Assembly: GCA_963676515.1 (NCBI GenBank)
Contig: OY781061.1
Span: forward strand, 660,776 to 724,775
Direction of reading: 5' to 3'
DNA from: Candidatus Cloacimonadota bacterium
Lineage (GTDB): Bacteria > Cloacimonadota > Cloacimonadia > G963667145
Length of the DNA stretch: 64,000 nt
Of the stretch, positions 29,256 to 53,039 are shown one piece after another (the first letter of the stretch is position 1; every line of letters starts with the position of its first letter). The notes below the pieces were generated by a model. That model saw nothing but the letters and a program-made list of their open reading frames with translations. It searched no databases and had not been told where the DNA came from. Both the position numbers and the translations under genes were made by a program.

Positions 29256-29588
29256 TTATCGGCAAAACTGAAGATCCGCCTTAACTTCTTGGATTTCTTT
29301 GTGCAACTCGTTATACTCAAGTTCCTTAATTTGCAAAAAAGCTTTAGTTATTCTCATTTTTTCTGTTATCCCTATCGGTGTTAACACATAAAGATAATTA
29401 CTCTTATTATCACTTTCGGCAAAATTGTGTAGTTTTAGAAATCCTTTCTTCCCAAGTTCCTTAAGTAAAAAATTCACTTTGCCCAAACTGAAACCTAAGC
29501 TATGAGCTAAAGACCTTTGGTTATGGTGTGGCTCTCTTTCTATTGCACTCAAAACCTTATAACTATTTTCTATTTCATTCTTGTTCAT
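29256..29588 (-). CDS. Small winged-helix DNA-binding protein (MarR/PadR-like). First gene of the polysaccharide operon.
   Basis: 110 aa. HNQRSLAHSLGFSLGKVNFLLKELGKKGFL resembles a wHTH recognition helix plus wing. Function inferred only from position. Confidence 0.45.
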   Translation of the reverse strand: MNKNEIENSYKVLSAIEREPHHNQRSLAHSLGFSLGKVNFLLKELGKKGFLKLHNFAESDNKSNYLYVLTPIGITEKMRITKAFLQIKELEYNELHKEIQEVKADLQFCR

Positions 29589-29703
29589 GGGTTGAACGAA
29601 AAAGGAAAGTATTTAATGTCAATAAAAAGTCTTCATAATAAAAAATGAGAGCAAAGAAATCCTCCGCTTACTACCAGAACTCTCTGGATGGTAAATGCTG
29701 AAC

Positions 29704-29740
29704 ATAAAAAAAGTGGACACGAACTCTATCGTATCCACTT
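29704..29740 (-). terminator. Rho-independent terminator of giant gene 1 (module E variant).
   Basis: On the minus strand: AAGUGGAUACGAUAGAGUUCGUGUCCACUU followed by U7. Lies 30 bp past the stop codon. Confidence 0.75.
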
Positions 29741-29770
29741 CTTCTTTAAAATTTACTTTTCATATATAAT

Positions 29771-32700: not shown

Positions 32701-35700
32701 CACTATTTGCAGTGAGTCCTGTGTGGCTATAGGTGGTGACATTGCCCAATGCTGTGTCGCTGTAGTTTGTGCCATCGCCTGAGTAAGAGAGAGAATAGCT
32801 CGTTGCTCCATCGACTGAGTTCCAAAACAGTTTTATCTGTGATGAACTAATGACACTGTCGGTGAGGCTCTTAGGAGCATCGACAATCGTGGTATCGCTC
32901 AATATGTCAGAGAATTCACTGTCGCCATTTCCATTGTAAGCTAAAACTTTGTAATAATGCACACTATTTGCAGCGAGTCCCTTGTCGCTGTAGGTGGTGA
33001 CATCCCCCAAAGTTGTGTCGCTGTATGTCCGCCCGCTGTCTATAGAGAACGCGAGGCGATAGCCTGTCGCTCCCTCTACTTCGCTCCATTTCAAATCTAT
33101 GCGTGACGCACTGACGACGCTGTCGGCTAGATTACTCGGAGCTGCGACGATTGTGGTGTCACTCAATGTGCCGGAGAATTCGCCAAAGCCTTTTGTATTA
33201 TAGGCTCGCACTTTGTAGAAATACTCTGTGTTTGCGGTGAGCCCTGTGCTGTAATAAGTGGTGCTATTGGTGTCGCCGATTGAAATATAGTCTCCACTAA
33301 TGGTATCTAATCGGTATATTGCATAGCTGGTTGCTCCAGCGACTGTGTTCCAAAACAGTTTTATCTGTGATGAGCTGATGACACTGTCGGTGAGGTTGCT
33401 CGGAGCATCGACCTTCGTGGTGTCGCTCAATGTGTCAGAGAATTTGCTTTCGCCGTTGTTATTATAAGCTAGTACCTTGTAGGAATAGACGGTGTAAGCG
33501 GAAAGCCCTTTGTCGCTGTAGGAGTTGATACTGGCAACGCCAACACTGTCGTATTTTTTACTAGTGGTGTCTAATCGGTAAATCTTGTAGCTGGCTGCTC
33601 CGGGGACGGTGTCCCATTTCAAATCTATCTGTGACGCACTCATGACACTGTCACTGAGGTTGCTCGGATGTGTGACGATTGTGGTGTCGCTTATTACGCT
33701 GGAGAACGCACCGAAGCCTTTTGTATTATAGGCTTGCACCTTGTAGAAATACTCTGTGTTTGCGGTGAGTCCTGTGCTCAGATAATTAGTTTCATTGGTT
33801 GCTCCGATTTTGTTGTCGCCTACATTTATAATTGTGTCCCTATAAATATAATAGCTATCTGCACCAGCGACTGTGTTCCAGTATAGATTTATCTGTGACT
33901 TACTCACGACACTGTCGGTGAGGTTGCTCGGAGCATCGACAATAGTGGTGTCGCTCAATATGTCAGAGAAAATACTATAGCCGTTGCCATTGTGAGCCTT
34001 CAGCTTGTAGAAGTAAGCTGTGTTAGCGGAGAGGTTTTCGATACTAAATGTGGTGCCATCTGTTGTTTCTTTTCGGTCATAATTTCCGCTTATAATTGTG
34101 TCTATATAAACGACATAGCCTGCCGCTCCCTCTACTTCGCTCCAGCTCAAATCTATGCGTGAAGCACTAACGACGCTGTCGGTGAGATTCCTTGGAGGTG
34201 CAACGATTGTGGTGTCGCACAATGTGCTAGAGAACTCTCCGTCGCCTTTGCCATTGTAGGCTAGCACTTTGTAGTAGTGCACGCTATTTGCGAAAAGTCC
34301 TGTGTCGCTGTAGAAAGTGTCGGTTGCCTCTTTCATTGAAGCATATGCTCCATCGCTGATTGTGTCCATGTAGACATAATAGCCAGATGCACCAGCGACT
34401 GTGTTCCAGAAAAGTTTTATCTGTGATGCACTGATGACACTGTCGGTGAGGTTGCTCGGAGCATCGACAATAGTGGTGTCGCTCAATATGTCAGAGATTT
34501 CACTGTCGCCATTGTTATTATAAGCTAGTACCTTGTAGGAATAGACGGTGTTCGCACTGAGGCTTTCGATACTAAAGACGGTGTCTTCTGCGTTCTCTTC
34601 TCGGGTATAGTTCCCATCTCCACTTGTGTCTATATAAACGACATAGCCTGCCGCTCCATCTACTTCGCTCCATTTCAAATCTATGCGTGAAGCACTCACG
34701 ACACTGTCGGTGAGATTGCTCGGAGCTAAGACGATTGTGGTGTCGCTTATTACGCTGGAGAACGCACCGAAGCCTTTTGTATTATAGGCTAGCACCTTGT
34801 AGAAATACTCTGTGTTTGCGGTGAGTCCTGTGCTCAGATAAATAGTGTCATCGGTTGCCCCGATTTTGTTGTCGCCTACATTTATAACTGTGTCCCTATA
34901 AATATAATAGCTATCTGCACCAGCGACTGTGTTCCAATATAGATTTATCTGTGACTTACTCACGACACTGTCGGTGAGGTTGCTCGGAGCGGCGACAATC
35001 GTGGTATCGCTCAATATGTCAGAGAATTCACTGTCGCCATTGTTATTATAAGCTAGTACCTTGTAGGAATAGACGGTGTAAGCGGATAGCCCTGTGTCGC
35101 TGTAGAAATTGCTACTGATGTCGCCAACACTACCGTATTCTCCATTAGTAGTATCTAATCGGTAAATCTTGTAGCTGGCTGCTCCAGGGACGGTGTCCCA
35201 TTGCAAATCTATGCGTGACGCACTGACGACGCTGTCGGTGAGATTGCTCGGATGTGTGACGATTGTGGTGTCGCTTATTACGCTGGAGAACGCACCGAAG
35301 CCTTTTGTATTATAGGCTTTCACCTTGTAGTAATGCACACTGTTTGCGGCGAGTCCTGTGTCGCTGTAGGTGGTGACATTGCCAAGAATTGTGTCGCTGT
35401 AAGCAGTGCCATCTTCTGAGTAAGAAAGAGAATAGCTCGTTGCACCAGCGACTGAGTTCCAATATAGATTTATCTGTGATTTACTCACGACACTGTCGGT
35501 GAGGTTGCTCGGAGCAGCAACCTTCGTGGTGTCGCTCACGGTTTTCGAGAAAATACTGTAGCCGTTGCCATTATAAGCCTTCAGCTTGTAAGAATAGACT
35601 GTGTAAGCAGTGAGACCTGTGTCGCTGTAGGTGGTGACATTCCCCAAAGTTGTGTCACTGTATGTCTGCCCGCTGTCTATAGAGAACGCGAGGCGATAGC

Positions 35701-38700
35701 CTGCCGCTCCCTCTACTTCGCTCCATTTCAAATCTATCTGTGACGCACTGACGACACTGTCGGTGAGATTTCTCGGAGCTAAGACGATTGTGGTGTCGCT
35801 CAGTACGCTAGAGAACTCTCCGTTGCCTTTGCCGTTGTAGGCTAGCACTTTGTAATAGTGCACACTATTTGCGGCGAGACCTGTGTCGCTGTAGGAAGTG
35901 TCATTGCCAAGAATTGTGTCGCTGTAAGCAGTGCCATCTTCTGAGTAAGAGAGAGAATAGCTCGTTGCTCCATCGACTGTGTTCCAGAACAGCTTTATCT
36001 GTGATGAACTAATGACACTGTCGGTGAGGCTCTTAGGAGCATCGACCTTCGTGGTGTCGCTCAATATGTCAGAGAATTCACTGTAGCCGTTGCCATTGTG
36101 AGCCTTCAGCTTGTAGAAGTAAGCTGTGTTAGCGGAGAGACCTGTGTCGCTGTAGGAGTTGATGCTGGCAACGCCAACACTGTCGTAACCTCCTCCAATG
36201 GTGGTATCTCTATAAATTGTGTAGCTGGCTGCTCCAGGGACGGTGTCCCATTGCAAATCTATGCGTGACGCACTCACGACACTGTCGGTGAGGTTGCTCG
36301 GATATGTGACGATTGTGGTGTCGCTTATTACGCTGGAGAACACACCGAAGCCTTTTGTATTATAGGCTTGCACCTTATAGAAATGCACACTATTTGCGAA
36401 AAGACCTGTGTGGCTGTAGGTGGTGACATTGCCCAATGCTGTGTCGCTATAGTTTGTGCCATCGCCTGAGTAAGAGAGAGAATAGCTCGTTGCACCAGCG
36501 ACTGAGTTCCAAAACAGTTTTATCTGTGATGAACTGATGACACTGTCGGTGAGGGTGCTCGGAGCGGCGACCATCGTGGTGTCGCTCAATATGTTAGAGA
36601 ATTCACTGTCGCCATTTCCGTTGTAAGCTAAAACTTTGTAGTAATGCACACTATTTGCAGCGAGTCCCTTGTCGCTGTAGGTGGTGACATCCCCCAAAGT
36701 TGTGTCGCTGTATGTCTGCCCGCTGTCTATAGAGAACGCGAGGCGATAGCCTTTCGCTCCATCAACTGCGTTCCATCTCAAATCTATTTGTGATGCACTA
36801 ACGACGCTGTCGGTGAGATTGCTCGGATGTGTGACGATTGTGGTGTCGCTCAGTGTGCTAGAGAACTCTCCGTTGCCTTTGCCATTGTAGGCTAGCACTT
36901 TGTAATAGTGCACGCTATTTGCGGCGAGTCCTGTGTCGCTGTAGGTGGTGACATTGCCCAATGCTGTGTCGCTGTAGTTTGTGCCATCGCCTGAGTAAGA
37001 GAGAGAATAGCCGTCTGCTCCAGCGACTGTGTTCCAGAAAAGTTTTATCTGTGATGCGCTGATGACACTGTCGGTGAGATTCTTAGGAGCATCAACCTTC
37101 GTGGTGTCAAATAATATGCCAGAAAATTCGCTATTACCGTTACCATTGTAAGCCTTTAGCTTGTAAGTGTAGACGGTGTAAGCGGAAAGGGCTGTGTCGC
37201 TGTAGGAGTTGATACTGGCAACGCCAACACTGTCGTATTTTTTACTAGTGGTATTTAATCGGTAAATCTTGTAGCTGGCTGCTCCGGGGACTGTGTCCCA
37301 TTGCAAATCTATGCGTGACGCACTCACGACACTGTCACTGAGGTTGCTCGGAGCGGCGACGATTGTGGTGTCGCTTACGATGCTAGAAGCTTTACTCTCT
37401 CCGACTGTATTATAAGCTGTCACTTTGTAGAAATATTCTGTGTTTGCGGCGAGACCTGTGTTGCAGTAGGAAGTGCTACTGGTGTCAACTAATAAGTTGT
37501 TGCTGCCTACATTTCCCGTTGTGTCCATGTAAACTCTATAGCGTTCTGCTCCTTCCACTTCGTCCCACGATATGTCGATTCGGGAAGAGCTTTTGGATTT
37601 GGCGGATACATTCGTCGGAGCAGCGACGATCGTGAAGAGACTCAATGTGTCGGAGTAATCACTATAGCCTTTGTAATTGTAGGCTCGCACTGTGTAGAAA
37701 TACTTCGTATTTGCGTTGAGACCTGTGCTGTAGTAGAAAGTGTCCGTGCCGACAGAGGTGTCTATATAAGTTCGCCCGCTGTCTATAGAGTAAGAGACAT
37801 AATAACATGATGCACCATCGACTGAGCTCCAGAACAAGTTTATTTGAGAAGAGTCTACGACACTATCGCAGAAATTGGCAGGAGCGGCGACCATAGTGGT
37901 GTCGCACAATGTGTCCGAGAAGCCAGATTCCCCTGCGTCACTATAAGCTGTGACTTTGTAGGTATAGCTTGTGAAAGCGGTGAGTCCTGTGTCATTGCAA
38001 GAAGTAACCTCGCCAATAAGCGTATGCTTGTAATCGGCACTACTTGGGGATGAGCGATATATTGTGTAGCCATCTGCTCCCTCGACTGAGTTCCAAGATA
38101 AATTTATTTGTGATGCACTGATGACAATGTCGGCGAGACCAGTCGGAGCTAAGACCTTTGTGGTGATGATCAATGTGTCGGAAAATTCACTGTCGCCGTT
38201 GCCATTGTAAGCTAGTATTTTATAGTAATATTTACTATTTGCCGTGAGACCTGTGTCGCTGTAGGAAGTGACCTTCTCGATTGCTGTGTCGCAATAGTTA
38301 TTGCCATCGTCTGCAGATATATAGAGGCGATAGCCTGCTGCTCCATCGACTGCGTCCCATTGCAAATCTATCTGAGAAAAGCTGACGACAGTATCGGAGA
38401 AACCAGCTGGAGGTGCGACGATGGTGGTGTCGCTTGCGATGTTAGCGTAATCTATATTACTACTACCAGCTTTGTTAAAAGCTATTACCTTGTAAAAATA
38501 CTCGGTGTTTGCGGCAAGCTCATTGCTACGATAAGCGGTGTCAGCGGTCTCTCCAATTTTGGTGTAAGTCCCATTACTAAAGTTTGGTGACATGAATACT
38601 CTGTAGCTATCTGCTCCACTGACTACATCCCAAGACAAATCTATCTCTGAGGCGCTTATGGATTTGGCTGTTAGGTTTTCAGGGTTAGTTACATGTATTC

Positions 38701-39847
38701 TTCCTTTTACGATTTGGGAAAACTCGGATGTGTCCACAGCGTTATAGGCTTTTATTTTATAATAATACATTGTATCTGCAGAGGCAACTTTATGACTGTA
38801 AGAGGTGACATTCTCAATAGTTGTAGGGGAATAATTATTGCCATCGTCTGAGATATAGAGGTAATAGCCTGCCGCTCCACAAGTTACAGTCCAAGACAAA
38901 CCTATCTGTGTCGAGTTCAGAACTCTAAGTGAGAGCCCTTCTGGATCCAAGAGTTTTACTCTCGATTTTACGGTGGCAGAAAAGTCTGAACTCCTAGAGG
39001 ATCTATAAGCTTTTAGTTTGTAGGAATATTCTATGTGTGGATCGGACACTGTGTCCGTGTAAAAGAGAACATTGCCGACATCTATCTGAGCGTAAGCCTC
39101 AATGCTGGCAGTATCTTTGTAGAGAGTGTAGCCATCGGCACCATCGACAGCATCCCACGACAAAAATATTTGTGAAATACTTACAGCTTTAGCGGCTAAA
39201 TTGCTGGGAGCTGCGACTATCGTGGTGTCACCTGCGATGTTGGAATATTCACTCTCACCACTTTCGTTATACGCTTTCACCTTATAGAAACAAGCTGTGT
39301 TTGCCTTGAGTCCTGTGTTACTATAAAAATTGCTGTTGACATTTCCAATAGGGTTGTAAGCTCCGCCCAGCGAAGATGATTTGTATATTCTGTAGTTTGC
39401 TTCTCCACTCACTGCGTTCCATGATAAATCTATTCGAGAAGAGCTTATAGCTTTTGCCGTTAGGTTGGTAGGAGTGGAAACAATCGTGATGGCACTTACG
39501 ATATCGGAAAATTCGCTATAACCATCAGCATTATAAGCTGTCACTTTGTAGTAATATTTTGTGTTTGCACTAAGCCCCGTGCTGGAACATAAATTGCTAC
39601 TGACATTGTTAATTTCGCTGTAATCTCCATCAAGAGCTGTTGCTTGGTGTACTTTATAACCTGTGGCTGTGCTCACGACATACCAAGACAAATCTATTTG
39701 CGAAGAATCTACGACAGTCGCCTCTAGATTGGTAGGAGCAGCTGGGAGAATCAGTTCCTCTGCATCGTCGTTTCCAGAAGGGCTGGTGCAGGTGACGAAA
39801 ATGACCAAGCTAAATATGATCGCTAAAAGTTTGAAACAATTCTTCAC
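29771..39847 (-). CDS. Giant surface lipoprotein. Signal peptide with lipobox, then about 30 tandem fibronectin-type-III-like modules, then a C-terminal block of 25-residue BspA/DUF285-type LRR repeats (~7 copies, 29771-30500).
   Basis: ORF 29771-39880 in the track. A GTG at 39847 is preferred as the start. It is preceded by AGAGGA 7 nt upstream and gives MKNCFKLLAIIFSLVIFVTC, parallel to paralog 2 (MKNWLKILVIIFSSVVFVTC). The repeats carry FN3 hallmarks (P-x-L...W...Y-x-[VI]-Y...Y-x-Y-x-V-x-A-x-N). The C-terminus is FNQDISGWDVSNVTIMNYMFSGA x7. Confidence 0.8.
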   Translation of the reverse strand: MKNCFKLLAIIFSLVIFVTCTSPSGNDDAEELILPAAPTNLEATVVDSSQIDLSWYVVSTATGYKVHQATALDGDYSEINNVSSNLCSSTGLSANTKYYYKVTAYNADGYSEFSDIVSAITIVSTPTNLTAKAISSSRIDLSWNAVSGEANYRIYKSSSLGGAYNPIGNVNSNFYSNTGLKANTACFYKVKAYNESGESEYSNIAGDTTIVAAPSNLAAKAVSISQIFLSWDAVDGADGYTLYKDTASIEAYAQIDVGNVLFYTDTVSDPHIEYSYKLKAYRSSRSSDFSATVKSRVKLLDPEGLSLRVLNSTQIGLSWTVTCGAAGYYLYISDDGNNYSPTTIENVTSYSHKVASADTMYYYKIKAYNAVDTSEFSQIVKGRIHVTNPENLTAKSISASEIDLSWDVVSGADSYRVFMSPNFSNGTYTKIGETADTAYRSNELAANTEYFYKVIAFNKAGSSNIDYANIASDTTIVAPPAGFSDTVVSFSQIDLQWDAVDGAAGYRLYISADDGNNYCDTAIEKVTSYSDTGLTANSKYYYKILAYNGNGDSEFSDTLIITTKVLAPTGLADIVISASQINLSWNSVEGADGYTIYRSSPSSADYKHTLIGEVTSCNDTGLTAFTSYTYKVTAYSDAGESGFSDTLCDTTMVAAPANFCDSVVDSSQINLFWSSVDGASCYYVSYSIDSGRTYIDTSVGTDTFYYSTGLNANTKYFYTVRAYNYKGYSDYSDTLSLFTIVAAPTNVSAKSKSSSRIDISWDEVEGAERYRVYMDTTGNVGSNNLLVDTSSTSYCNTGLAANTEYFYKVTAYNTVGESKASSIVSDTTIVAAPSNLSDSVVSASRIDLQWDTVPGAASYKIYRLNTTSKKYDSVGVASINSYSDTALSAYTVYTYKLKAYNGNGNSEFSGILFDTTKVDAPKNLTDSVISASQIKLFWNTVAGADGYSLSYSGDGTNYSDTALGNVTTYSDTGLAANSVHYYKVLAYNGKGNGEFSSTLSDTTIVTHPSNLTDSVVSASQIDLRWNAVDGAKGYRLAFSIDSGQTYSDTTLGDVTTYSDKGLAANSVHYYKVLAYNGNGDSEFSNILSDTTMVAAPSTLTDSVISSSQIKLFWNSVAGATSYSLSYSGDGTNYSDTALGNVTTYSHTGLFANSVHFYKVQAYNTKGFGVFSSVISDTTIVTYPSNLTDSVVSASRIDLQWDTVPGAASYTIYRDTTIGGGYDSVGVASINSYSDTGLSANTAYFYKLKAHNGNGYSEFSDILSDTTKVDAPKSLTDSVISSSQIKLFWNTVDGATSYSLSYSEDGTAYSDTILGNDTSYSDTGLAANSVHYYKVLAYNGKGNGEFSSVLSDTTIVLAPRNLTDSVVSASQIDLKWSEVEGAAGYRLAFSIDSGQTYSDTTLGNVTTYSDTGLTAYTVYSYKLKAYNGNGYSIFSKTVSDTTKVAAPSNLTDSVVSKSQINLYWNSVAGATSYSLSYSEDGTAYSDTILGNVTTYSDTGLAANSVHYYKVKAYNTKGFGAFSSVISDTTIVTHPSNLTDSVVSASRIDLQWDTVPGAASYKIYRLDTTNGEYGSVGDISSNFYSDTGLSAYTVYSYKVLAYNNNGDSEFSDILSDTTIVAAPSNLTDSVVSKSQINLYWNTVAGADSYYIYRDTVINVGDNKIGATDDTIYLSTGLTANTEYFYKVLAYNTKGFGAFSSVISDTTIVLAPSNLTDSVVSASRIDLKWSEVDGAAGYVVYIDTSGDGNYTREENAEDTVFSIESLSANTVYSYKVLAYNNNGDSEISDILSDTTIVDAPSNLTDSVISASQIKLFWNTVAGASGYYVYMDTISDGAYASMKEATDTFYSDTGLFANSVHYYKVLAYNGKGDGEFSSTLCDTTIVAPPRNLTDSVVSASRIDLSWSEVEGAAGYVVYIDTIISGNYDRKETTDGTTFSIENLSANTAYFYKLKAHNGNGYSIFSDILSDTTIVDAPSNLTDSVVSKSQINLYWNTVAGADSYYIYRDTIINVGDNKIGATNETNYLSTGLTANTEYFYKVQAYNTKGFGAFSSVISDTTIVTHPSNLSDSVMSASQIDLKWDTVPGAASYKIYRLDTTSKKYDSVGVASINSYSDKGLSAYTVYSYKVLAYNNNGESKFSDTLSDTTKVDAPSNLTDSVISSSQIKLFWNTVAGATSYAIYRLDTISGDYISIGDTNSTTYYSTGLTANTEYFYKVRAYNTKGFGEFSGTLSDTTIVAAPSNLADSVVSASRIDLKWSEVEGATGYRLAFSIDSGRTYSDTTLGDVTTYSDKGLAANSVHYYKVLAYNGNGDSEFSDILSDTTIVDAPKSLTDSVISSSQIKLFWNSVDGATSYSLSYSGDGTNYSDTALGNVTTYSHTGLTANSVHYYKVLARNGKGNSAFSDILCDTTIVAAPANLVDSVVSASRIDLRWDTVPGAASYKIYRLDTTSGDYDSVGVANSNSYSDTGLSAFTVYSYKVLAYNNNGYSIFSNTVSDTTIIDAPKSLTDSVISSSQIKLFWNTVDGATSYSLSYSEDGTAYSDTILGNDTSYSDTGLAANSVHYYKVLARNGKGNSAFSDILCDTTIVLAPSNLTDSVVSASRIDLKWSEVDGAAGYRLSFSVDSGRTYSDTTLGNVTTYSDTGLTANTKYFYRVSAHNTKGYSDFSDTLRIFTIVASPTNLTDSVVSASQINLSWHAVAGATSYAIYRLDTISGDYISIGDTNSTTYYSTGLAANTEYFYKVKAYNGSGYSAFSSGISDTTIVLAPSNLESSVVSASRIDLRWDTVPGAARYKIYRLDTTNGEYGSVGDISSNSYSDTGLSAYTVYTYKLKAYNGNGYSVFSDILSDTTIVAAPADLKASAVDSSQIRISWSTAAGADGYYLYISDDGEHYGDSIVRTDTFYSSMGLNSDTEYYYKVRSYHGRGVSDFSAVVIGKINVNAPANVFAEAKSFSQIDISWDKVSGAEGYTIYHADSSGENFSPIGDIDDIIYQNKGLNANSKHFYKIQAYNAVDTSSLSDSVSVTTIVATPTILSDSAASPTQIDISWSEVAGATGYYLCTATSSEGSYDTTTVGLVSNYSITSLSENSKRFYKIAAYSDAGQSAFSSIDSATTYITLNTLKAMIADRDDVTQVNTAGITNMESLFSSDSTFNQDISGWDVSNVTIMNYMFSGAKEFNGDISGWDVSNVQTMQGMFSNAILFNSNISNWNVSKVENMLHMFSGAETFNQNLNSWEVGSVTNMSFMFFNDTMFNGDINGWDVSSVTNMSYMFDGAKAFNKDLNSWDVDSVTNMNYMFAGATKFNGNISAWNVGNVEWMSAMFMFAKAFNINLSGWKSKLTSLDEERYANYDLGAEKWWDSYKPF

Positions 39848-39914
39848 TTTTATTCCTCTATTTCCAAAACAATTTCCCAAATAATGTCAACTTTGTTACA
39901 CTTTTGGAATTTGT

Positions 39915-39922
39915 CAAATATA
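39915..39922 (-). promoter_or_regulatory. Candidate promoter element TATATTTG(ACAA) (minus strand), 68 bp upstream of the giant gene 1 start.
   Basis: The same TA(A/T)ATTTGACAA motif sits at an equivalent distance (66 bp) upstream of giant gene 2 (52193-52200). It matches the TAnnTTTG (-7) consensus of Bacteroidota and also contains a TTGACA hexamer. Confidence 0.35.
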
Positions 39923-40056
39923 GTTATGGATTTTTAACTGAAAAATCAAAACAAGTTTGAAAGAGCAGAGCAAAAGTGTCTAGGATTTGGGGTTCATATC
40001 AGGATGTAAGGAAACAGAAACCGCAGATAGACACAGATGACTACAGATGACTGCCC

Positions 40057-40253
40057 CTTTTGTGCATCGTGTGGGAGAATGGATTCCCGCTTCCGCGGGA
40101 ATGAGGGCTGGGTGGCGATGCAGAGCTGGTGGTGAATAAACATACTGGCTGATGAAGGCACAAGGCGTGCGGTGTGCAGGAATGGGGACTGGTGGTGTGC
40201 TTCCTTGCCTTGCTTGCCTCATCCTCGCGAAAGCGGGGATCCAAGGGCGGGTG
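40057..40253. repeat. 'BA' repeat unit copy.
   Basis: Contains the TTCCCGC-TTCC-GCGGGAA palindrome, two Chi-like GCTGGTGG octamers and the GNRA hairpin at 40221-40240. Confidence 0.8.
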
Positions 40254-40384
40254 TAAACACCAGCAGAAATTTTGCGTCTTCAGCGTGCGAGGTAGGTTTA
40301 GATTTTAGATTTCGGCTTTGGTTTTTTGACTGTATGCTTTGTTTCGTATGCATTCCCAAGCTGGAGCTTGGGAACGAGGGGAAA
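40254..40384. repeat. 'C' repeat module copy.
   Basis: cagcagaaattttgcgtcttc...tttgactgtatgctttgtttcgtatgcaTTCCCAAGCTGGAGCTTGGGAAcgagggg. Copies lie at 40971-41099 and 52410-52530, with a variant at 53040-53200. Confidence 0.8.
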
Positions 40385-40414
40385 TCCCTCTGATAAGAGA
40401 AGATACCTGCTTTT

Positions 40415-40639
40415 TAGCTTTCAGCTGGACTCCATCTTTTCTTTGAACGCTCAACGAAAAGATAGAGGAGAAAAGAAAACCGCTCCGCTTCAATCCGCCA
40501 GAGAGATGGCGTGAGGTGTGTAGGCTGTCCGTGGTGGAGAGCACCTCCGATATTTGTTCTTAGCTGTGCATTTTCAATTGCTGGCATTGCAGTGCCATAG
40601 ATAAAGGTCTGTGTCTCTGGCTCTGCCCGTGAAGCGGAG
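40415..40639. repeat. Repeat module 'D', copy 2.
   Basis: About 90% identical to 128-350. Confidence 0.8.
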
Positions 40640-40660
40640 AAATTCCCCATCCTAGCTAGC

Positions 40661-40970
40661 AGGTAAGACCGCCCTTCCCTACCCATTGATAGCATCGTGT
40701 GGGAGAATGGATTCCCGCTTCCGCGGGAATGAGGGCTGGTGGCGATGCAGAGCTGGTGGTGAATAAACATACTGGCTGATGAAGGCACAAGGCGTGTGGT
40801 GTGCAGGAATGGGGACTGGAGGGAACACAGAGGAGACAGTAACCGCAGATGGACACAGATGAGGGCGGGTGGTGACACAAGGCGTGCGGTGTGCAGGAAT
40901 GGGGACTGGTGGTGTGCTTCCTTGCCTTGCTTGCCTCATCCTCGCGAAAGCGGGGATCCAAGGGCGGGTG
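40661..40970. repeat. 'BA' repeat unit copy with an internal ~48-bp partial duplication (40821-40868).
   Basis: Aligns to 40057-40253 except for the inserted segment gggaacacagaggagacagtaaccgcagatggacacagatgagggcgggtggtgac, which is itself related to 40012-40050. Confidence 0.75.
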
Positions 40971-41099
40971 CTAAACACCAGCAGAAATTTTGCGTCTTCG
41001 GCGTGCGGATCGTTTAGAATTTAGCTTACAGCTTTGGTTTTTTGACTGTATGCTTTGTTTCGTATGCATTCCCAAGCTGGAGCTTGGGAACGAGGGGAA
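40971..41099. repeat. 'C' repeat module copy.
   Basis: Aligns to 40254-40384. Palindrome at 41069-41090. Confidence 0.8.
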
Positions 41100-41137
41100 A
41101 AAAATCCTTGCTGCCCAAACAGAAATGAACGAAGCAT

Positions 41138-41173
41138 AAAAAAAGTGAACACGGTCTCTAGTCGTATCCACTT
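41138..41173 (-). terminator. Rho-independent terminator of giant gene 2 (module E).
   Basis: Hairpin agtgaacacggtctctagtcgtatccact with an A7 run on the + strand (U-tract on the minus strand), about 20 bp past the stop codon. Near-identical copy at 53567-53603. Confidence 0.75.
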
Positions 41174-41192
41174 CTTCTTCTAAATTTAAAAT

Positions 41193-44100
41193 CTAGTCAC
41201 TAAAGTAAGGTTGATAATACACATTCCACGCTGGATAAGTATTGAGAGAAAAACTATCGTGACTGGTTACCTTGCTCACATCCCAATTTCCAAGATTTTG
41301 GAAAAAGAGTTTTGCTCCGTTAAACATATGAGCCATATCTGTGACACTACTCACATTCCAATCACTGATGTCTTGGTTAAAAATATATGCAGAAAAAAAC
41401 ATCTTAACCATTTTTGTGACACTACTCACATTCCAACCACGGATGGGTTGGTTAAAAGCATATGCATTACTAAACATATAACTCATGTCTGTGACATTGC
41501 TTACATCCCAATAATTTATGTTTTGGTTAAATGCTTCAGCCTGACAAAACATATTTTTCATAGTGGTGACATTATATACATGCCAACTACCTATGTGTTT
41601 GTTAAAAGAAAGTGCCTTATAAAACATATAACTCATATCTGTGACATTCTTTGTTTCCCAGAAATTTAAGGTTTGGTTAAAAGAAGTTGCACTATAAAAC
41701 ATATAACTCATATCTTTAACATTGCTTACATCCCAACCACCTATGTCTTGGTTAAAAGCACCTGCATAATAAAACATATAACTCATATCTTTGACATTGC
41801 TTACGACCCAACCACCTATGTCTTGGTTAAAAGCACTTGCACCATAAAACATTTGATTCATATCAGTAACATTGCTCACATCCCAACCACTGATATCTTG
41901 ATTGAATGTTGTGTTATTTAAAAACAAGCTAGACATATCTGTAATCATGCCTGTATTTACTTCGCTAACATCATTATCAGCAGTTATCCTAGCCCGCAAA
42001 ACAGTTTTCGAGATATATGGCTTTTTGTATACGGCAGTAGAGTAGTCAGATAGCCCTGCATCGCTATAAGCTTTCACTTTGTAATAATAATTTTGGGTTA
42101 CTCCAATCCCTGTGTCGTCGTAGGTGGTGCTAGTGACACTAGTAATTAACTCATAAGAATCATAGAGAGAGGTTGCTCGGTATATGTTGTATTTTGTAGC
42201 TCCACTGACTGAGTTCCAAGATAAGTCTATTTGCTCAAAGGTTGTAGTTTTAGCTGATAAATTAGTCGGAGCGAGCACATTCGTGGTGACACTCAATAAG
42301 TTAGAATACCCACTTTCGCCGTTTGCATCGCAAGCTGTTACTTTGTAATAATAGGTTGTATTGGCGGAGAGTCCTTTGCTCGCGCCAGACTCGCTAGTGA
42401 CACTAGTGACATAAGTGTCAGGTCCACCACTAGAGGTTGATCTGTATATCTTGTAGCTAGTGGCACCGGCAACTGAGCTCCAGCTCAGGGTTATTTGAGA
42501 AGAGCTGGAATAATCTTTAGCTAGATTGATGGGAGCTGCCAGAATCGTGGTCGCACTTACTTGGCTAGAACTCTCAGATTCCCCTACATCACTGTAGGCT
42601 GTCACCTTGTAGTAATAGGTTGTGCTCACACTGAGCCCTGTGTTAGAGTAAGACTCGCTACTGACACTAATTAGGAGAGTGAGAGTCTCACCACTAGAGG
42701 TTGACCTGTATATCTTGTAACCTTTTGCTCCTGCGACTTTGCCCCACGATAAGTTTATTTGTGAAGAGTTCGTGGCTGTAGCAGAGAAACCCGTGGGAGC
42801 GGCGACGATAGTGGTAGCACTCACCGTGTCGGAGTATTCACTGTTGCCATTTGTGTTGTAGGCTCGCACTGTGTAGAGGTACTCTGTGCCTGCACTGAGC
42901 CCTGTGCTGTGGCAGAGAGTGTCTGTGACAATTTCAGTTTTGAGGTAACTCCCATCGCTATCTAGTCGGTCAACTTTGTAACCTGTAGCTCCTGCGACTG
43001 AGTCCCACGCTATGTCTATCTTAAAGGAGCTGATGACATTACTGGTGAGGTTAGTAGGTGCTAAGACTATCGTGGTGTCCTTCAGGATGTCAGAGTAATC
43101 CGATTCCCCTGCATCATTCTGGGCAGTCACTTTGTAATAATACTCCGTATTTGCAGTGAGCCCTGTGTCGCTGTAAGAGGTGTCCATGCCCACAGCTGTG
43201 TCGAGATAATCTACACCATCTGCAGAGTAATAGAGGCAATAGCTCGTCGCACCAACGACTGAGTCCCATCGCAAATCTATGCGTGATGCACTGACGACGC
43301 TGTCGGTAAGATTGGCTGGAGCTAAGACTCTAGTGGTAGCAATCAGTGTGTCGGAGTATTCGCCATCGCCCTTCGCATTGCGAGCCTTCACCTTGTAATA
43401 GTACTCTGTGTTTGCGGCTAGCCCTGTGCTGTAGTAGGTGGTAACAGTCGTATCGCCAATCTTGGCATACTCTCCATCACGAGAGGGTGCTCGGTATATT
43501 GCGTAGCTCGTCGCTCCAGCGACTGCCTCCCAGCTCAAATCTATGCGTGATGAGCTAAATGCACTGCTGGTGAGGTTAGCAGGAGCTGCGACCATCGTGG
43601 TGTCTGTGAGTATGGCAGAGTATTGACTATAGCCGCCTACATTGTGTGCCCTCACTTTGTAATGATACACCGTGTAAGCTGTGAGTCCCGTGTCGCTGTA
43701 GGAGGTGACATCGCCCACTGCTGTGTCGCTGTAGTGTGTGCCATCTGTGGAGTAAGAGAGGTAATAGCTCGTCGCACCAGCGACTGCCTCCCATTTCAAA
43801 TCGATGCGTGACTCGCTCACGACACTGTCGGTGAAATTGGCAGGAGCGAGGAAAATCGTGGTATCGCTCACTACGCTGGAGAATACGGACTCTCCAGAAG
43901 CACTGTAAGCTAGCACCTTGTAAGAGTAGACTGTATTTGCCGTGAGCCCTGTGCTGTAGTAGGGGGCATCGCTGGTATCGCCGATTTCGCTGTAAGTTCC
44001 ATCACTCTGTAATTGGTGTATGCGATAACCTGTCGCTCCCTCGACTTCGCTCCAAGCTATGTCAATTTGGGAAGAGCTAGTGGCAGTAGCAGAAACGGTA

Positions 44101-47100
44101 GCAGGAGCTAGCACTCTTGTGGTCGCACTAATTGTGTCGGACTCTTCACTGTCGCCATTTCCATTGTGAGCTTTCACCTTGTAAATATACCTTGTGGCTG
44201 CGGCGAGTTCTGTGCTGTGATAGGTAGTAGCAGTTGTGTCGCCTATTTCAGTGTAATACTTGTCACTAAAGAGTGCACGAGATATTTTGTAGCTGGTAGC
44301 CCCGGGGACTGTGTCCCACGATACATCTATCTGTGAGGCACTAACGATGCTGTCCGTGAGGTTACTCGGAGCTACAACGATGGTGGTGTCGCTGGCTACG
44401 CTAGAGAGTGCAGACTGCCCTGCATCACTATAAGCAGATACTTTGTAGAAATACTCTGTGTTTGCGACGAGATTTTTGCTGTGGTAAACTAGCGTTGCAT
44501 AAAGGTCAGTTTCGTCGTAAGTTCCATCACTCTGTAGTTGGTGTATCTTGTAACCTGTCGCTCCTTTAACTTCGCTCCAAGTTATGTCAATTTGGGAAGA
44601 GCTCGTGGCAGTGGCAGAAACATCGGCAGGAACTAACACTCTTGTGGTCACTTTTTTGGCTTGCGAGGCTTCACTATCGCCATTTCCATTGCAAGCTGTT
44701 ACCTTGTAAAGATACTCTGTGTCTGCGATGAGCCCTTTGCTGTCGTCGTAGGACTCACTACTGGCGACACCAACACTGTCGTAATCTCCATCACTAGCGA
44801 GTGCTCGGTATATTTTGTAGCTGGTAGCTCCAGCGACTTCTTGCCAGCTCAGATTCGTCTGTGTAGCACCAGAGGCAATGACTGTGAGACTCGTGGGAGG
44901 CAAGAGTCTCGTGGTGTCGCTCACTACGCTAGAGAGTGCAGATTCGCCTGCATCGCTGTGGGCACTCACTTGGTAATAATACTCTGTGTTTGAAGCAAGC
45001 TCTGTGCTGTGATAGATGAGGCTGTCGGTTGTGCCAAGCTCGCTGTAAATCCCATCACTGCCCAAAATATAGATGCTATAATCTGTCGCTCCCTCTACGA
45101 GAGCCCAAGAGATGTCAATTTGGGAGGAACTCTGAGGCGTAGCCAAAACGCTACTCGGAGCTACGACAATGGTCGTCACTCTCAATGAATCAGAAAATTC
45201 GCTGTCGCCCTTTGTGTTGTGGGCTTTCACCTTGTAGAGGTAGGTTGTGTTTGCGGTGAGCCCTGTGCTGTAGTAGTAGGCAGTGGTCGTATCGCCAATC
45301 TCGGTGTAATCCCCGCCACTAGCGAGTGCTCGGTATATTTTGTAGCTTGTCGCTCCATCTACTTTGCCCCAGCTCAGATCTATGCGTGACTCACTGATGA
45401 CACTGTCGGTAAGTCCCTTCGGAGCTGCGACTATAGTGGTGTCGCTTAAAATTTGGGAAGGCTCGCTCTCGCCGCTTCCATTATCAGCTGTCACTTTGTA
45501 ATAATAAACTGTGTTTGGAGCAAGCTCTGTGCTCTGGTAAGAAGTGTCAGAGGTCGAGTCAATCCCAGCGTAATCTCCATCGATAGAGGAGGCTCGGTAT
45601 ATTTTGTAAATCTGGGCTCCATCGACTTCGTTCCAACTTAGATTTATTTGTGAGGAGCTGACAACACTATCGGTGAGATCGGCAGGAGCTAACACTCTTG
45701 TGGTCGCTTTGATTTCTGAGGCTGCACCATCGCCGTTTACATTGGTAGCTATCACCTTGTAAGAATACTTCGTGTTTGCACTGAGCCCCATGCTCCCATA
45801 GGAAGTTGTATAAACCTCAACTACTCTGCCGTCACTAGAAGGCGTTCGAGATATTTTGTAGCTGGTAGCTCCAAACACTGAGTCCCATTGCAAATCTATG
45901 CGTATCGCACTCACGACATCGTAGGCAAGATTAGCAGGAGTTGCCACTCTTGTGGTCGCACTTTTGCTTTCGGAGGAGTCACTCTCGCCGCCTACATTGT
46001 GAGCGGTTACTCTGTAATAATACTCCGTGTGTGCTGTAAGTCCTACGCTGTCCTCGTAGGACTCGCTACTGGCACTATCCACATAATTGTAATCCCCAAC
46101 CATCGAGAGTGCTCGGTATATTCTGTAGCTCGTGGCTCCATCGACTGAGCTCCAAGATAAACCTATTCGTGAGGAGCTTTCGCTGGTCACTAAAAGATTA
46201 GCAGGAGCCAAGAAAATCGTGGTGTCACTTGCGACATCAGAAGGTACACTCTCACCGCTGGCACTACTAGCACTCACCATATAGAAGTACTCTTTGTTTG
46301 CTGCGAGTCCAGTGCTATCATTGTAATACTCGCTACTGGTCACGCCGACACTGTCGTAGTCTCCATCACTAGAGGATGCTCGGTATATTGCGTAGCTCGT
46401 GGCTCCGCCGACTTCGCCCCAAGCTAAGTCTATTTGGTAAAAGCTTTTGGCAGTAGCTACTAAATTTACAGGAGCTAACACTCTTGTGGTCACTTCTATA
46501 ATTTCTGAGTCTTTGCTGCTACCCTTTGCGTTGTGAGCGTTCAGCTTATAGAAATAAGCTGTGTTCGCACTGAGTCCTGAGTTGTCGAAGTAAACCAAGC
46601 CAGTGCCTCCACCCATTTGCCAATAATCTCCGCCAATAGTGGATGCTCGATGAATTGTGTAGTTGGTAGCTCCAGCCACTAAGTCCCAGCTCAGCTTTAT
46701 TTGTGATGAGCTGATGGCTCTGTCGATGATGTTACTAGGAGCTGCCACCATCGTGGTGTCGGTAGCTATCTCAGAGTATGCGGACTTCCCTGCATCGCTG
46801 TAGGCTTTCACCATGTAAGAGTAGCCTGTGTATGGGCTAAGCCCAGTGCTGTCAGCGTAAAAATCGCTGCTGTCCACGCCAATGCTGTCGTAAGCTCCAC
46901 CAGCAGAGGGTGCTCGGTATATTATATAGCTCGATACTCCGGGGACGGTGTCCCATGCCAAATCTATGCGTGAGGCACTTTTGGTAATGGCTGTCAGATT
47001 ATCAGGGGCTAACACTCTTGTCCTCACAGTCGATACGCCAGAGGCTTCGCTCTCGCCGTTTCCATTGTATGCTGTTACTTTGTAGGAATAATCCGTATCT

Positions 47101-50100
47101 GCACTGAGTCCTGTGCTGTCATCGTAGGACTCGCTACTGACATCCCCAATTGGCTTGTATTCCCCATCACTAGGGTCTAATCGGTACACTTTGTAGTCTG
47201 TGGCTCCATCGACTTTGTCCCAAGATAAATTTATTTGTAATGCACTGAAAGCACTACCGCTAAGATTCGTGGGAGCTAAGACGATCGTGGTATCGCTTGC
47301 CATATCAGAGTAATCGGACTCCCCTACTCCGTTATAAGCTCGGACTTTGTAGTAATACTTTTTGTTTGCGATGAGCTCTATACTGTCCTCGTAGGACTCG
47401 CTACTGGCAACGCCCACACTGTCGTAAGGTCCACTAATATGGGATGCTCGGTATATTTTGTAGCCCTCTATTCCAGCGACTGTGTCCCAAACTAAGTCTA
47501 TTTGTGATGAACTTTTGGCTATGGTAGATAAACCCGTGGGCACAGCGACAATCGTGGTTGCTCTCAAGGTGTCGGAAAAGTCACCCTCGCCGTTTGCATT
47601 TTTAGCTCGGACATAGTAAAAATATTCCTCGTTTGCATCGAGTTCTTTGCTGTCGTAGGTAGTACTCGTGGAGACAAATATAGAAGAGTAATCTGTATCC
47701 TTATTTTTGGAGTAAAAGATATAATAGCCAGTTGCTCCCTTGACTGGGTCCCAAGACAGATTTATCTGTGATGCACTCACGACACTGTAAGAGAAATTGC
47801 TAGGAGCGGCGACGAGCGTGGTTTTGCTCACGGTGCTAGAGGCTTCCGACTCTCCCGCATCGCTATAGGCGGTGACTTTGTAGGAGTAATCTGTGTATGG
47901 GCTGAGCCCTGTGCTCTCGTAAGCGAGCTCCCCAATAACATCGCCGATTTCAGTGCTATCTCCAACACTATTTAGTTGGTAAATTTTGTAGCCTGTAGCT
48001 CCAGCGACTTCGCCCCAAGCTAGGTCAATCTGAGAGGAGCTTTCGACTGTGGCAGACAAACTCGTCGGGGCTGCGACGAGTGTGGTGACAATCAATGTGT
48101 AAGAAAATTCGCTGTCGCCTTTGCCATTGTAGGCTAGCACTTTGTAGTAATGCTCGCTATTTGCGGCGAGTCCTGTGTTGCTGTAGGTGGTGACATTGCC
48201 TACTGCTATCTCGCTGTAAGATTGACCGCTGTCTGCAGAGAAAGCGAGGCGATAGCCCGTTGCTCCGTCGACTTCGTCCCAGCTCAGGTCTATCTGCGAT
48301 GAGCTAACTACACTGTCGCTGAGGTTGCTCGGAGCGGCGACCTTCGTGGTGTCGCTCAGTGTGTCGGAAAACACGCTGTAGCCGTTGCCATTGTAAGCCA
48401 GCACCTTGTAGAAGTAGGCTGTGTTTGCACTAAGCCCTGTGCTGTGGTAGATGAGGCTGTTGGTGTCGCCGATTACCTTGTACTCCCCACCAATGGCGGG
48501 TGCTCGGTAAATTGCGTAGCTGGCTGCTCCAGCGACTGAGTCCCATCGCAAATCTATGCGTGATGCACTGACGACGCTGTCGGCAAGATTGGTTGGAGCT
48601 AGGACGATTGTGGTGTCGCACAATGTGCTAGAGAACGCACCATCGCCTTTGCCATTGTAGGCTAGCACTTTGTAGTAGTGCACGCTATTTGCGGTGAGTC
48701 CCGCGTGGCTGTAGGTGGTGACGGCACAATCTACTGTGTCGCCATAAGTTACGCCGTCTGCCGAGATTGCGAGGAGATAACCATCTGCTCCGTCCACTGC
48801 GTCCCAGCTCAGGTCTATCTGCGATGAGCTGACGACACTGTCGGTGAAATTACTCGGCGCGGCGACGATAGTGATGTCACTCACGACGCTAGAGGTGTCT
48901 GATTCCCCTGCTCCGCTGTAGGCTGTCACCTTGTAGAAGTAGGTTGTGTTTGGGCTGAGTCCTATGCTGTGGTAGAGAGTGTCTGCGATAAGGTCAATGC
49001 CAACATAAGTCCCAGCACTATTTAATTGGTAAACTTTGTAGCCTGTCGCTCCAGCAACTTTGCCCCAAGATAAGTCTATTCGCTCAGAACTTCGGGTTGT
49101 GGCAGCTAGCTTACTCGGAGCGGCGACAATCGTGGTGTCGCTCAGTATGGCAGAGAAATTGCTGTAACCTTTTGTGTTGTATGCCCTTACCTTGTAGTAA
49201 TGCACGCTATTTGCGGCGAGTCCTGTGTCGCTGTAGGTGGTGACATTGCCCACTGCTGTGTCGCTGTATGTCCGCCCGCTGTCTACAGAGAACGAGAGGC
49301 AATAGCCATTAGCACCAGTGACTGCATCCCAATAGAGATCAATCTGTGATGCACTGCTGACACCATTGGTGAGATTGCTCGGAGCGGCGACGATTGTGGT
49401 GTCGCTCAGTGTGCTAGAAAATTCGCTATAACCATTGCTATTGTAAGCCTTTAGCTTGTAGATGTAGACTGTGAAAGCGGCGAGTCCTGTGTCGCTGTAG
49501 AAGTTGCTACTGGCAACGCCGACACTGTCGTTCACTCCACCACTGGCGGGTGTGCGGTATATTGTGTAGCTGGCAGCTCCGGGGACTGTGTCCCATCGCA
49601 AATCTATGCGTGATGCACTCACGACGCTGTCACTGAGGTTGCTCGGCGGTGCAACGATGGTGGTGTCGCTCACCGTGCTGGAGGCTTTGCTGTCGCCAAC
49701 TGCACTGTATGCCCTCACCCTGTAGAAGTACTCGGTGTTTGCGGTGAGTCCTGTGCTTTGGTAGGCGGTGACATTGCCTAGAATGGTGTCAAACTGGATA
49801 CCAGCAGTGGTGGACTGGGTTAGTTTATAGCCGTCTGCTCCTTCCACTTCGCTCCACGATATGTCGATTCGAGATGAGCTCTTGCTTTTGGCGGAGATAT
49901 TTTTCGGTGTCAAGACCATCGTGTAGGTGCTCAAGGTGTCCGAGAATTCGCTATAGCCTCTCAGATTGTAGGCTCGCACTGCGTAGAAATACTTCGTGTT
50001 TGCCTCGAGACCTGTGCTGGGGTAGAGAGTGTCCGTGCCGATAGGTGTGTCGCTGTAAGTTTGACCGTTGTCGGCAGAGAAAGAAAGATAATATTCAGTT

Positions 50101-52127: not shown

Positions 52128-52192
52128 TTTTTCCTTCTCTTTTTAAAAAAATCCCAAGTTAAGTTCCACAGTACTAGACTTTTAAAAGTTGT

Positions 52193-52200
52193 CAAATTTA
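52193..52200 (-). promoter_or_regulatory. Candidate promoter element TAAATTTG(ACAA), 66 bp upstream of the giant gene 2 start.
   Basis: Shared motif and spacing with 39915-39922. Confidence 0.35.
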
Positions 52201-52309
52201 GAAGTAATTTTTTCTCTAAAAAAGACAAAAATGAGCTTGGAATTTCACTGAAAAAAAGAAAAGAGGATTTTATTCACAAATAAAAAATAGTAGTTAAAAT
52301 GGGACACCG

Positions 52310-52390
52310 CCCTTTCCTGCCCATTGAAGGCATCGTGTGGGGGAATGGATTCCCGCTTCCGCGGGAATGAGGGCTGGTGGGAACGCAAGG
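52310..52390. repeat. Head fragment of the 'BA' unit.
   Basis: cattgaaggcatcgtgtgggggaatggattcccgcttccgcgggaatgagggctggtgg. Confidence 0.7.
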
Positions 52391-52409
52391 CGAGTGGTGA
52401 GCGGAGAAC

Positions 52410-52530
52410 TGTAGAGACGCAAAATTTTGCGTCTTCGGTGTGCGGGGTTGGTTTAGAATTTAGCTTTCGACTTTGGTATTTTGACTGTATGCTTTGTTTC
52501 GTATGCATTCCCAAGCTGGAGCTTGGGAAC
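52410..52530. repeat. 'C' repeat module copy.
   Basis: Contains an 18-bp perfect palindrome GACGCAAAATTTTGCGTC (52416-52433) and TTCCCAAGCTGGAGCTTGGGAA (52508-52529). Confidence 0.8.
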
Positions 52531-52544
52531 GAGGGGAAAGGGGA

Positions 52545-52610
52545 CTGCCCTGCCCTGCCCCTTTTGTGCATCGTGTGGGAGAATGGATTCCCGCTTCCGC
52601 GGGAATGAGG
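52545..52610. repeat. Head fragment of the 'BA' unit.
   Basis: ctgccctgccccttttgtgcatcgtgtgggagaatggattcccgcttccgcgggaatgagg. Confidence 0.7.
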
Positions 52611-53039
52611 ATGAAAAACTAAAACCTGAAAAACTTACCTATTACTGTGGTTTCTCTTACCAGAGTGGTTTTCATTTTTCTTTTGTAACCAAAGGAAAAA
52701 CCGAAACAAAAAGAAAAGTTCCTTTTGGCATAAACTCGCTATAAGGGCGGCGAGAGGAGAGTGAGGCAAACCAACGGAGTAGAGCTCCTTCCGTGTAATG
52801 TCCATAAGCTTTGTTGTTATCTGGAGGTGTCGTCTGACGGTGAATAGATACTGGTTTTTTCTTATGCTCAAACTTATGCCAAAAGTGATACCACCCAGCC
52901 CCAGAGCGTGCTAAGGGGAAAGTTGGGCTAGCAAATACTTAAAGCAGGAAGCGTGAAATTCGTTAACCGCCCAGAGCTACGCTGACGACGAAGTGCTATA
53001 TCACCTATAAAATGACAGATGAGATTCATAGCACGAGGC

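Follow-up and report, generated by a model that had tools for sequence, protein, structure and literature searches.

What are the repeat-filled spacers that separate three giant paralogous genes in a Cloacimonadota-like genome, and what has shaped them? The question concerns a 64-kb stretch of contig OY781061.1 (64,000 nt; hereafter the window) and, within it, the two spacers between the giant genes (39848-41192 and 52128-53612) together with the first 644 nt. A sequence-only reading of this DNA had seen in all three regions a mosaic of a few palindromic modules resembling BOX, BIME or Correia elements, and had offered MITE-like mobility, mRNA-end stabilization and a role as recombination substrate as possible functions. 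Judged by their sequence, the spacers appear to be NIME-type arrays of small palindromic repeats that are already known, the CCTC-tagged form of the CGTC-1 REP (the dRS3/NTS class). To this reading as a whole—CCTC-tagged CGTC-1 REPs in NIME-type arrays, acting at the DNA level as single-stranded DNA (ssDNA) hairpins—we assign a probability of roughly 70%; of the three functions offered, recombination substrate is the best.

The modules are indeed common to the three regions, where they are 85-100% identical. Self-BLASTN of these regions against the window gave many matches of 40-409 nt at 81-100% identity, all of them co-oriented, with minus-strand matches at palindromes only; and when the 64 kb were searched module by module, copies were confined to the three regions, except for a terminator module (T) found behind each giant gene. 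The strong palindromes also bore scrutiny: GGATYCCCGC-N4-GCGRGRATGAGG has 13 matches and TTCCCAAGCTGGAGCTTGGGAA (TTCCCAAGC...GCTTGGGAA) has four sites, against 0.00 expected from shuffled sequence in each case. A further palindrome, GACGCAAAATTTTGCGTC, exists, but in a single full copy, those in spacer 1 being right halves only. The TTCC-loop and GNRA-loop hairpins of the sequence-only reading proved to be one element in opposite orientations. The core units number 15 hairpins and one chimera, all within the three arrays, and the CCTC tag is present on 15 of the 15 hairpins:

40080-40106, minus strand: hairpin H1, CCTC-ATTCCCGC-GGAA-GCGGGAAT-CCAT from tag to tail; six copies, the others at 387-413, 40708-40734, 52346-52372, 52584-52610 and 53250-53276.
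40217-40243, plus strand: hairpin H2, CCTC-ATCCTCGC-GAAA-GCGGGGAT-CCAA, the H1 element inverted; five copies, the others at 58-84, 523-549, 40934-40960 and 53458-53484.
40349-40379, minus strand: hairpin E, CCTC-GTTCCCAAGC-TCCA-GCTTGGGAAT-GCAT; four copies, the others at 41065-41095, 52504-52534 and 53169-53199.
53387-53414, no strand assigned: chimeric hairpin CCTCATCCTCGC-GTAA-GCGGGAATGAGG, with the left arm of H2, the right arm of H1 and a tag at each end.
52411-52434, plus strand: D, GTAG-AGACGCAA-AATT-TTGCGTCT (GTAG-AGACGCAAAATTTTGCGTCT), the sole complete GTAG-tagged REP; right-half copies at 40267-40290 and 40985-41008.

The 11 copies of H1 and H2 share an 8-bp stem starting with AT, AT(T/C)C(C/T)CGC, a 4-nt loop that reads as GNRA from tag to tail (GGAA or GAAA), and the tail CCA(A/T). 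All six H1 copies match exactly the dRS3 string ATTCCC-N8-GGGAAT, H2 and E lying outside its strict form. The four E copies are a longer-stem variant that keeps the CCTC tag but departs from the 8-bp/CCA form in its 9-10-bp stem and GCA tail. Folded as ssDNA, the H1, H2 and E hairpins reach -6.4 to -9.6 kcal/mol, with z-scores of -3 to -5, and their GC content is 0.60 as against 0.52 between hairpins.

These features coincide with a published class. The superfamily of CGTC-tagged REPs described by Di Nocera 2013 (PMC3733652) accepts TGTC and CCTC as tag variants; its CGTC-1 family, which is dRS3 in Neisseria, has 8-bp stems starting A-T, 4-nt loops and a CCA tail, and occurs mostly as inverted dimers. 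H1 and H2 show every one of these features: the unpaired 4-nt tag in its explicit CCTC variant, the stem, the loop, the tail and the inverted dimers, the last being tag-to-tag with conserved spacers and variable tail-to-tail intervals if "head" in that paper is taken to mean the tagged end. A GTAG-tagged REP stands alongside, GTAG-tagged REPs being the RAYT-associated superfamily that coexists with CGTC REPs in several species (PMC3733652). A family of this kind is dispersed over its genome in tens to thousands of units; the 64 kb contain 16 copies, the chimera included. There are differences: outside Neisseria and Wolbachia, CGTC REPs are said to form clusters only rarely, whereas the copies in the window are all clustered; at 110 nt the spacers rank among the longer ones reported; the E stem and tail are aberrant; and Cloacimonadota are not among the phyla listed in PMC3733652.

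At the level of arrays the closest counterpart is the NIME of Bentley 2007 (PMC1797815), in which dRS3 inverted repeats flank families of RS elements of about 50-150 bp; NIMEs cluster in arrays beside surface-antigen genes, and were not seen by those authors outside Neisseria. Syntenic NIME arrays differ from strain to strain, and the genes that flank them diverge more strongly. The window likewise has the 20-bp dRS3 hairpin, separated by repeat segments of 20-300 nt that form families, with other repeat types interleaved, hairpins more GC-rich than the intervals between them, and surface-protein genes adjoining. It differs in its host, which is not Neisseria but probably a Cloacimonadota-like genome of about 1.58 Mb, in its tag (CCTC, not CGTC), in that half of its hairpins (H2 and E) lie outside the strict dRS3 string, and in that its arrays, known here from one genome, repeat a composite unit instead of a wide assortment of RS families. 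The likeness to BIMEs and REP mosaics noticed earlier thus stands in a general sense, but the nearest kin is more specific: the E. coli BIMEs and REPINs are also intergenic mosaics of inverted REP hairpins with conserved linkers, lying downstream of genes, and the one GTAG-tagged REP recalls them, but the main hairpins of the window are CCTC-tagged, a tag class for which no RAYT association was found either here or in the literature.

The modules follow a periodic order, B-H1-G1-G2-H2-J-D-F-E-Y-X, which makes up a composite unit of about 640 nt (40051-40691, with D as a half). Spacer 2 and the window start keep to the order of this unit, apart from deletions and replacements. The earlier claim that the modules recur in different orders is thus too strong, a repeated composite unit worn down by indels being the better description: the arrangement is mostly collinear and periodic, with one clear permutation, E-Y in spacer 1 as against Y-E in spacer 2. 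The arrays and their principal cassettes are as follows:

1-644: array S0, G2-H2-(unique)-X-B-H1-G1-G2-H2-g, truncated by the window edge.
40051-41100: array S1, a full composite unit (40051-40691) and a partial unit (40692-41100) with K inserted in G2.
52306-52610: left part of array S2, B-H1-g-D(full)-F-E-B-H1.
52611-53040: unique insert in S2, 430 nt, 43% GC.
53041-53540: right part of array S2, F'-(other cassette)-Y-E-B-H1-G1-G2-chimera-g-H2.
40107-40216, plus strand: G1-G2 spacer, with GCTGGTGG motifs; also 414-522 and 53277-53386, and a disrupted copy at 40735-40933.
40415-40650: X cassette, whose 5' hairpin is polypurine/polypyrimidine and whose closing stem of 10 bp is CTCCGCTTCA/TGAAGCGGAG; also 125-349.

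H1 and H2 are paired with their tags facing each other across the conserved, G-rich G1-G2 spacer of 109-110 nt; three such pairs are intact, their spacers 92-98% identical, and a fourth is split by module K. The tail-to-tail intervals are variable, holding J, the GTAG-tagged D, F, E, Y and the 236-nt X, and in spacer 2 the 430-nt unique insert; on the module map the recurrent segments between hairpins are G1-G2, J-D-F, Y and B. The unique insert, whose open reading frames (ORFs) do not exceed 78 aa and which has no match in the window or among the loci compared, may be a passenger cassette or a gene remnant. The 5' hairpin of X, CATCTTTTCTTTGA...TCAACGAAAAGATAG, is followed by a purine run, its closing stem encloses a variable core of about 150 nt, and X folds with z-scores of -3.6 and -4.5 relative to shuffled controls. 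X may be a non-coding RNA, a mobile cassette or a DNA structure; it has no Rfam match, and a scan of a viral collection for X found nothing, as did a plasmid BLAST of array S1. The octamer GCTGGTGG of the G1-G2 spacers is the Chi sequence of E. coli: it occurs 16 times in the window against about one expected, and the three arrays account for 12 of the 16, each of them on the plus strand and usually directly after a hairpin tag (GAGGGCTGGTGG). As parts of repeated modules, these copies do not count as independent, and the Chi of this lineage may differ from that of E. coli.

How old the arrays are relative to their surroundings can be gauged from the genes that they adjoin:

645-1646, minus strand: galE-like gene, with array S0 downstream of it, at the edge of a glycan cluster.
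29771-39847, minus strand: giant lipoprotein gene 1, with some 35 Fn3 repeats and with DUF285 at the C-terminus.
41193-52127, minus strand: giant gene 2, a paralogue.
53613 to beyond 64000, minus strand: giant gene 3, a paralogue, which runs past the window end.

Between spacers, module copies are 92-100% identical (for example 95.6% for 40051-40253 against 53221-53421, and 100% for B-H1 and for E), whereas identity is 72-85% in the paralogous coding DNA on either side, and AT-rich stretches close to the promoters cannot be aligned. Because the modules are more alike than the genes beside them, the arrays probably spread, or were homogenized, after the gene duplications. Two kinds of breakpoint lie at palindrome centres. 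One is the chimeric hairpin at 53387-53414, whose fusion of an H2-type left arm to an H1-type right arm, noticed earlier, is real, and the other is the pair of half-D copies. Loss of the whole sequence from loop to loop in a tail-to-tail H2...H1 pair would leave a hairpin with two tags, and we read the chimera as the scar of such a deletion; breakage at palindrome centres would fit hairpin-mediated slippage or cleavage at extruded hairpins.

The arrays are also delimited with respect to transcription:

41122-41192, minus strand: module T, a terminator-like hairpin and T-run immediately behind the giant gene 2 stop codon; its paralogous copies are at 53541-53612 and 29703-29755.
39900-39919 and 52178-52197, minus strand: promoter-like box ATTTGACAAnTTnnAAAAGT, some 55 nt upstream of where giant genes 1 and 2 start (GTG/TTG).

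Module T is 55-70 nt long. The box, with two sites against 0.02 expected, is the sole alignable part of the divergent AT-rich leader regions. The arrays thus sit between a terminator and the next promoter-like box, which argues against a primary role as mRNA-end stabilizers: each giant gene has its own terminator ahead of the array, with the conserved box beyond it, and this makes the stabilizer function suggested earlier unlikely, although read-through transcription may occur.

The sequence class, the array architecture, the relative levels of similarity and the breakpoints at palindrome centres are direct observations, and a course of events can be proposed for them. The units would work as DNA, folded into hairpins in single strands; a composite unit of about 640 nt would have been amplified within and between spacers; recombination or gene conversion would have kept the units similar, or made them so; and deletions, at least two kinds of which would have broken at palindrome centres by hairpin slippage or cleavage, would then have eroded the arrays. 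Their likely partner among proteins would be an Ssn-type nuclease, a small GIY-YIG enzyme that binds such hairpins in ssDNA and cuts just upstream of the tag. The arrays would in this way probably modulate recombination, or transformation and uptake, at the surface loci that they flank (the glycan island and the three giant Fn3-DUF285 genes), as has been proposed for Neisseria. The enzyme, any mobility of the units and their biological effect are what we infer.

The nuclease enters the argument through Chenal 2025 (PMC11893778), where the 28-nt NTS CGTCATTCCCGCGMAVGCGGGAATCYRG, bound as ssDNA, encompasses dRS3. SsnA, a GIY-YIG protein of 94 aa, cuts the NTS a few nt upstream and acts on ssDNA, not RNA, and the C after the palindrome is the position most crucial for its binding; across phyla, ssn genes are typically flanked by NTS-type hairpins in an SRM-ssnA-SRM architecture, and NTS clusters adjoin membrane-protein genes (PMC11893778). 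Relative to the 28-nt consensus H1 has two or three substitutions and retains the crucial C. The hairpins of the window share with the NTS/SRM system the palindrome core ATTCCCGC-N4-GCGGGAAT followed by C, an upstream tag that makes the element directional, and the clustering beside membrane or surface genes. A scan of 185,579 species genomes with an exact 26-nt hairpin pattern found it at at least 114 loci in many phyla, where by our own estimate chance would give less than one. ORFs within 800 nt of the hairpin were clustered: among the matches listed, two families recurred, each in three loci, an ABC-transporter ATPase, which we discounted as ubiquitous, and a GIY-YIG protein of about 98 aa (loci L030, L036 and L069), while among the same ORFs no RAYT, IS110 or other transposase family was recurrent. 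Inverted CCTCAT hairpins almost identical to H1 and H2 bracket the GIY-YIG gene on both sides in several unrelated genomes (L030, L069 and L124-127), which is the SRM-ssnA-SRM arrangement. In other genomes ssnA occupies the tail-to-tail slot that X holds here. A reading of X as a decayed ssn gene was rejected, tblastn of Ssn proteins against the window giving no match in X. Among the best 120 of 2388 Ssn homologues none came from the source contig, a result that is uninformative rather than negative; many of these 120 are recorded only on contigs of 500-1500 bp, as is expected if a gene flanked by hairpins is repeated or breaks short-read assemblies.

Several results weigh against this picture. 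An Ssn-like gene is adjacent in only three of the 114 hairpin loci listed, and the 64 kb encode neither a GIY-YIG protein nor any transposase or recombinase. The degenerate SRM pattern has no match in the window (one if tag position 2 is freed), because the tag carries C in place of the required G and the GGAA loops break one position; the NTS consensus itself has none at up to one mismatch, one at up to two and six at up to three. A scan of metagenomes with the array-specific 20-mer GCGRGRATGAGGGCTGGTGG returned eight unrelated loci and no relatives, and the collinear order and uniform orientation of the modules fit plain tandem amplification as well as they fit a process driven by an enzyme. 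Against the nuclease link in particular, the window hairpins are two to four mismatches from the NTS consensus, and their G to C change in the tag affects one of the three nucleotides important for cleavage in N. meningitidis. An Ssn protein would therefore be a candidate partner suggested by other genomes and the literature rather than by this window, and taken alone we put the link at an even chance at best, perhaps somewhat under it.

Relatives of the arrays are found in other Cloacimonadota. The Cloacimonadota chromosome OY781092.1 (locus L104) carries 68 nt of X at 97% identity together with a B-H1 segment; aligned over 2640-2870 (minus strand) of that locus, X keeps this level only in those 5' 68 nt, its core being about 45% identical. 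The Cloacimonadales chromosome OZ223280.1 (loci L008 and L083) has G2-H2 in common with the window, and a similar array of GTAG-tagged and CCTC/CGTC-tagged hairpins; in L083 the mixed array (438-804) lies immediately upstream of the tmRNA gene ssrA, whose tag peptide is GNDNYAMAA. Such matches suggest a Cloacimonadota source for the window. The closest relative found, at 68% GalE identity, has no array at the corresponding galE site. In the two genomes with related arrays these stand upstream of the tmRNA gene and between thrC and dinB, and because of this the arrays of the lineage are not specific to giant genes. The earlier statement that the modules are concentrated between huge paralogous genes does not generalize, S0 itself being downstream of a galE-like gene.

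One alternative makes the arrays a passive by-product: a unit of giant gene plus spacer was tandemly duplicated and then reworked by local unequal crossing-over, the palindromes being incidental, with no dedicated enzyme or function. The single orientation and largely collinear order of the modules favour it, as do the absence of a mobility enzyme from the window and of visible target-site duplications, and terminator module T was clearly duplicated along with the 3' ends of the genes. Yet gene and spacer duplicated together should not leave modules so much more alike than the adjoining coding DNA and unalignable leaders; S0 lies outside the giant-gene spacers; segments B-H1, G2-H2 and X turn up again in other Cloacimonadota genomes, in unrelated contexts; and the tagged and tailed hairpin is found across phyla, where it flanks GIY-YIG genes. 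We consider this explanation improbable. Somewhat less credit still is due to the idea that the arrays are transcribed and work as RNA, as mRNA 3'-end stabilizers, terminators or small RNAs, such as has been proposed for many REPs. REPs typically lie downstream of ORFs and are thought often to be transcribed (PMC3733652), the H1 and H2 loops are GNRA in the tag-to-tail orientation, and X folds better than its shuffled controls; but the terminator of each giant gene precedes the array and a promoter-like box follows it, the occurrence of both hairpin orientations means that only half of them would present the same RNA, and SsnA acts on ssDNA. Rfam, with the whole window at gathering thresholds and both spacers at E<=5, returned chance-level matches only.

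Least likely is that the H1...H2 pairs, of about 164 nt with 26-nt inverted ends, are non-autonomous transposons, whether REPINs mobilized by a RAYT or conventional MITEs, moved by an HUH tyrosine or a DDE transposase. Tag-to-tag pairs with a conserved spacer do resemble REPIN doublets, and one REP, at 52411, bears the GTAG tag of the RAYT-associated class (PMC3733652). But there is no RAYT or other transposase gene in the 64-kb window, no transposase family recurs near the hairpin in the 114 loci listed, and CGTC- and CCTC-tagged REPs are reported without association to RAYT or other transposase genes (PMC3733652). The flanks of the pairs, inspected by eye (..gagaatG/GAT.. and ..ATCC/aaggg..), carry no duplication; because no target-site duplications were found, the features of a conventional MITE (a class that includes the Correia elements) are absent, which weakens the MITE-like unit proposed earlier. 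A relation between spacers and giant genes of the template/variable-repeat kind seen in DGRs was rejected because the spacers match no coding sequence. The reading that we prefer remains that of NIME-type arrays of CCTC-tagged hairpins acting as ssDNA.

The wider window sets these arrays among surface genes. Every gene in it lies on the minus strand. From 645 to 29236 extends a surface-glycan biosynthesis cluster of low GC content (30.7%), comprising glycosyltransferases, sugar epimerases and dehydratases, aminotransferases, an EpsG-type polymerase and an acyltransferase; in GC content this cluster contrasts sharply with the rest, which reaches 46-47% in the giant genes and 53-55% in the arrays. 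It resembles a surface-glycan island that was acquired horizontally or can be exchanged, with array S0 on one edge. At its other side, the intergenic region around 29256-29588, between cluster and giant gene 1, has no array; the 110-aa ORF that occupies these positions (minus strand) resembles by eye a winged-helix regulator. No tRNA or tmRNA was found on scanning the window. All three giant genes have a lipoprotein-type signal in addition to their Fn3 repeats and DUF285. Genes 2 and 3 share a 5.8-kb block (45676-51451 and 58222-64000) in which 84.5% of nucleotides are identical; the figure is only about 73-75% for their 3' parts and for gene 1. This pattern suggests that the paralogues underwent partial gene conversion or a staggered duplication. 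A search for homologues of the giant-gene N-terminus gave generic Fn3 proteins only, at no more than 37% identity, and because of this the spacers could not be compared at orthologous giant-gene loci.

Spurious long ORFs cross the arrays (200-766 and 40414-40878 on the minus strand, 52324-52608 on the plus strand), and contain the hairpin-derived peptides MDSRFRGNE, GFPLPRE and SFPRKRES; the same peptide lies within the over-extended Ssn ORF of L069. Such ORFs are a likely origin of false "hypothetical proteins" and call for caution in annotation, and arrays of this kind can break short-read assemblies.

The hairpin class and the array type are already published; what is new is the CCTC-tagged occurrence in a Cloacimonadota-like genome, bracketing a glycan island and giant Fn3-DUF285 genes. 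A bolder interpretation, to which we give little credence, would make the window a counterpart of the NTS/NIME system in an uncultivated Cloacimonadota-like anaerobe. CCTC hairpins and a cognate Ssn protein would fence surface cassettes—the low-GC glycan island of 29 kb and each of the Fn3-DUF285 lipoprotein genes, 10-11 kb long—and govern their exchange; breakage and rejoining centred on hairpins would shuffle the arrays, leaving the chimeric hairpin and half palindromes as traces; and the slot of ssnA would be taken here by non-coding passengers, X and the 430-nt insert, as cargo. If this were so, hairpin pairs could carry arbitrary cargo. In 2007 NIME arrays were described as a speciality of Neisseria tied to surface-antigen variation, a view that the window modestly widens. 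With the hairpin linked in 2025 to a new family of ssDNA-specific nucleases, the window offers an independent case for the Ssn/NTS hypothesis; and hairpin arrays beside surface-structure genes in so remote a lineage provide an independent test case for what may be a general bacterial strategy.

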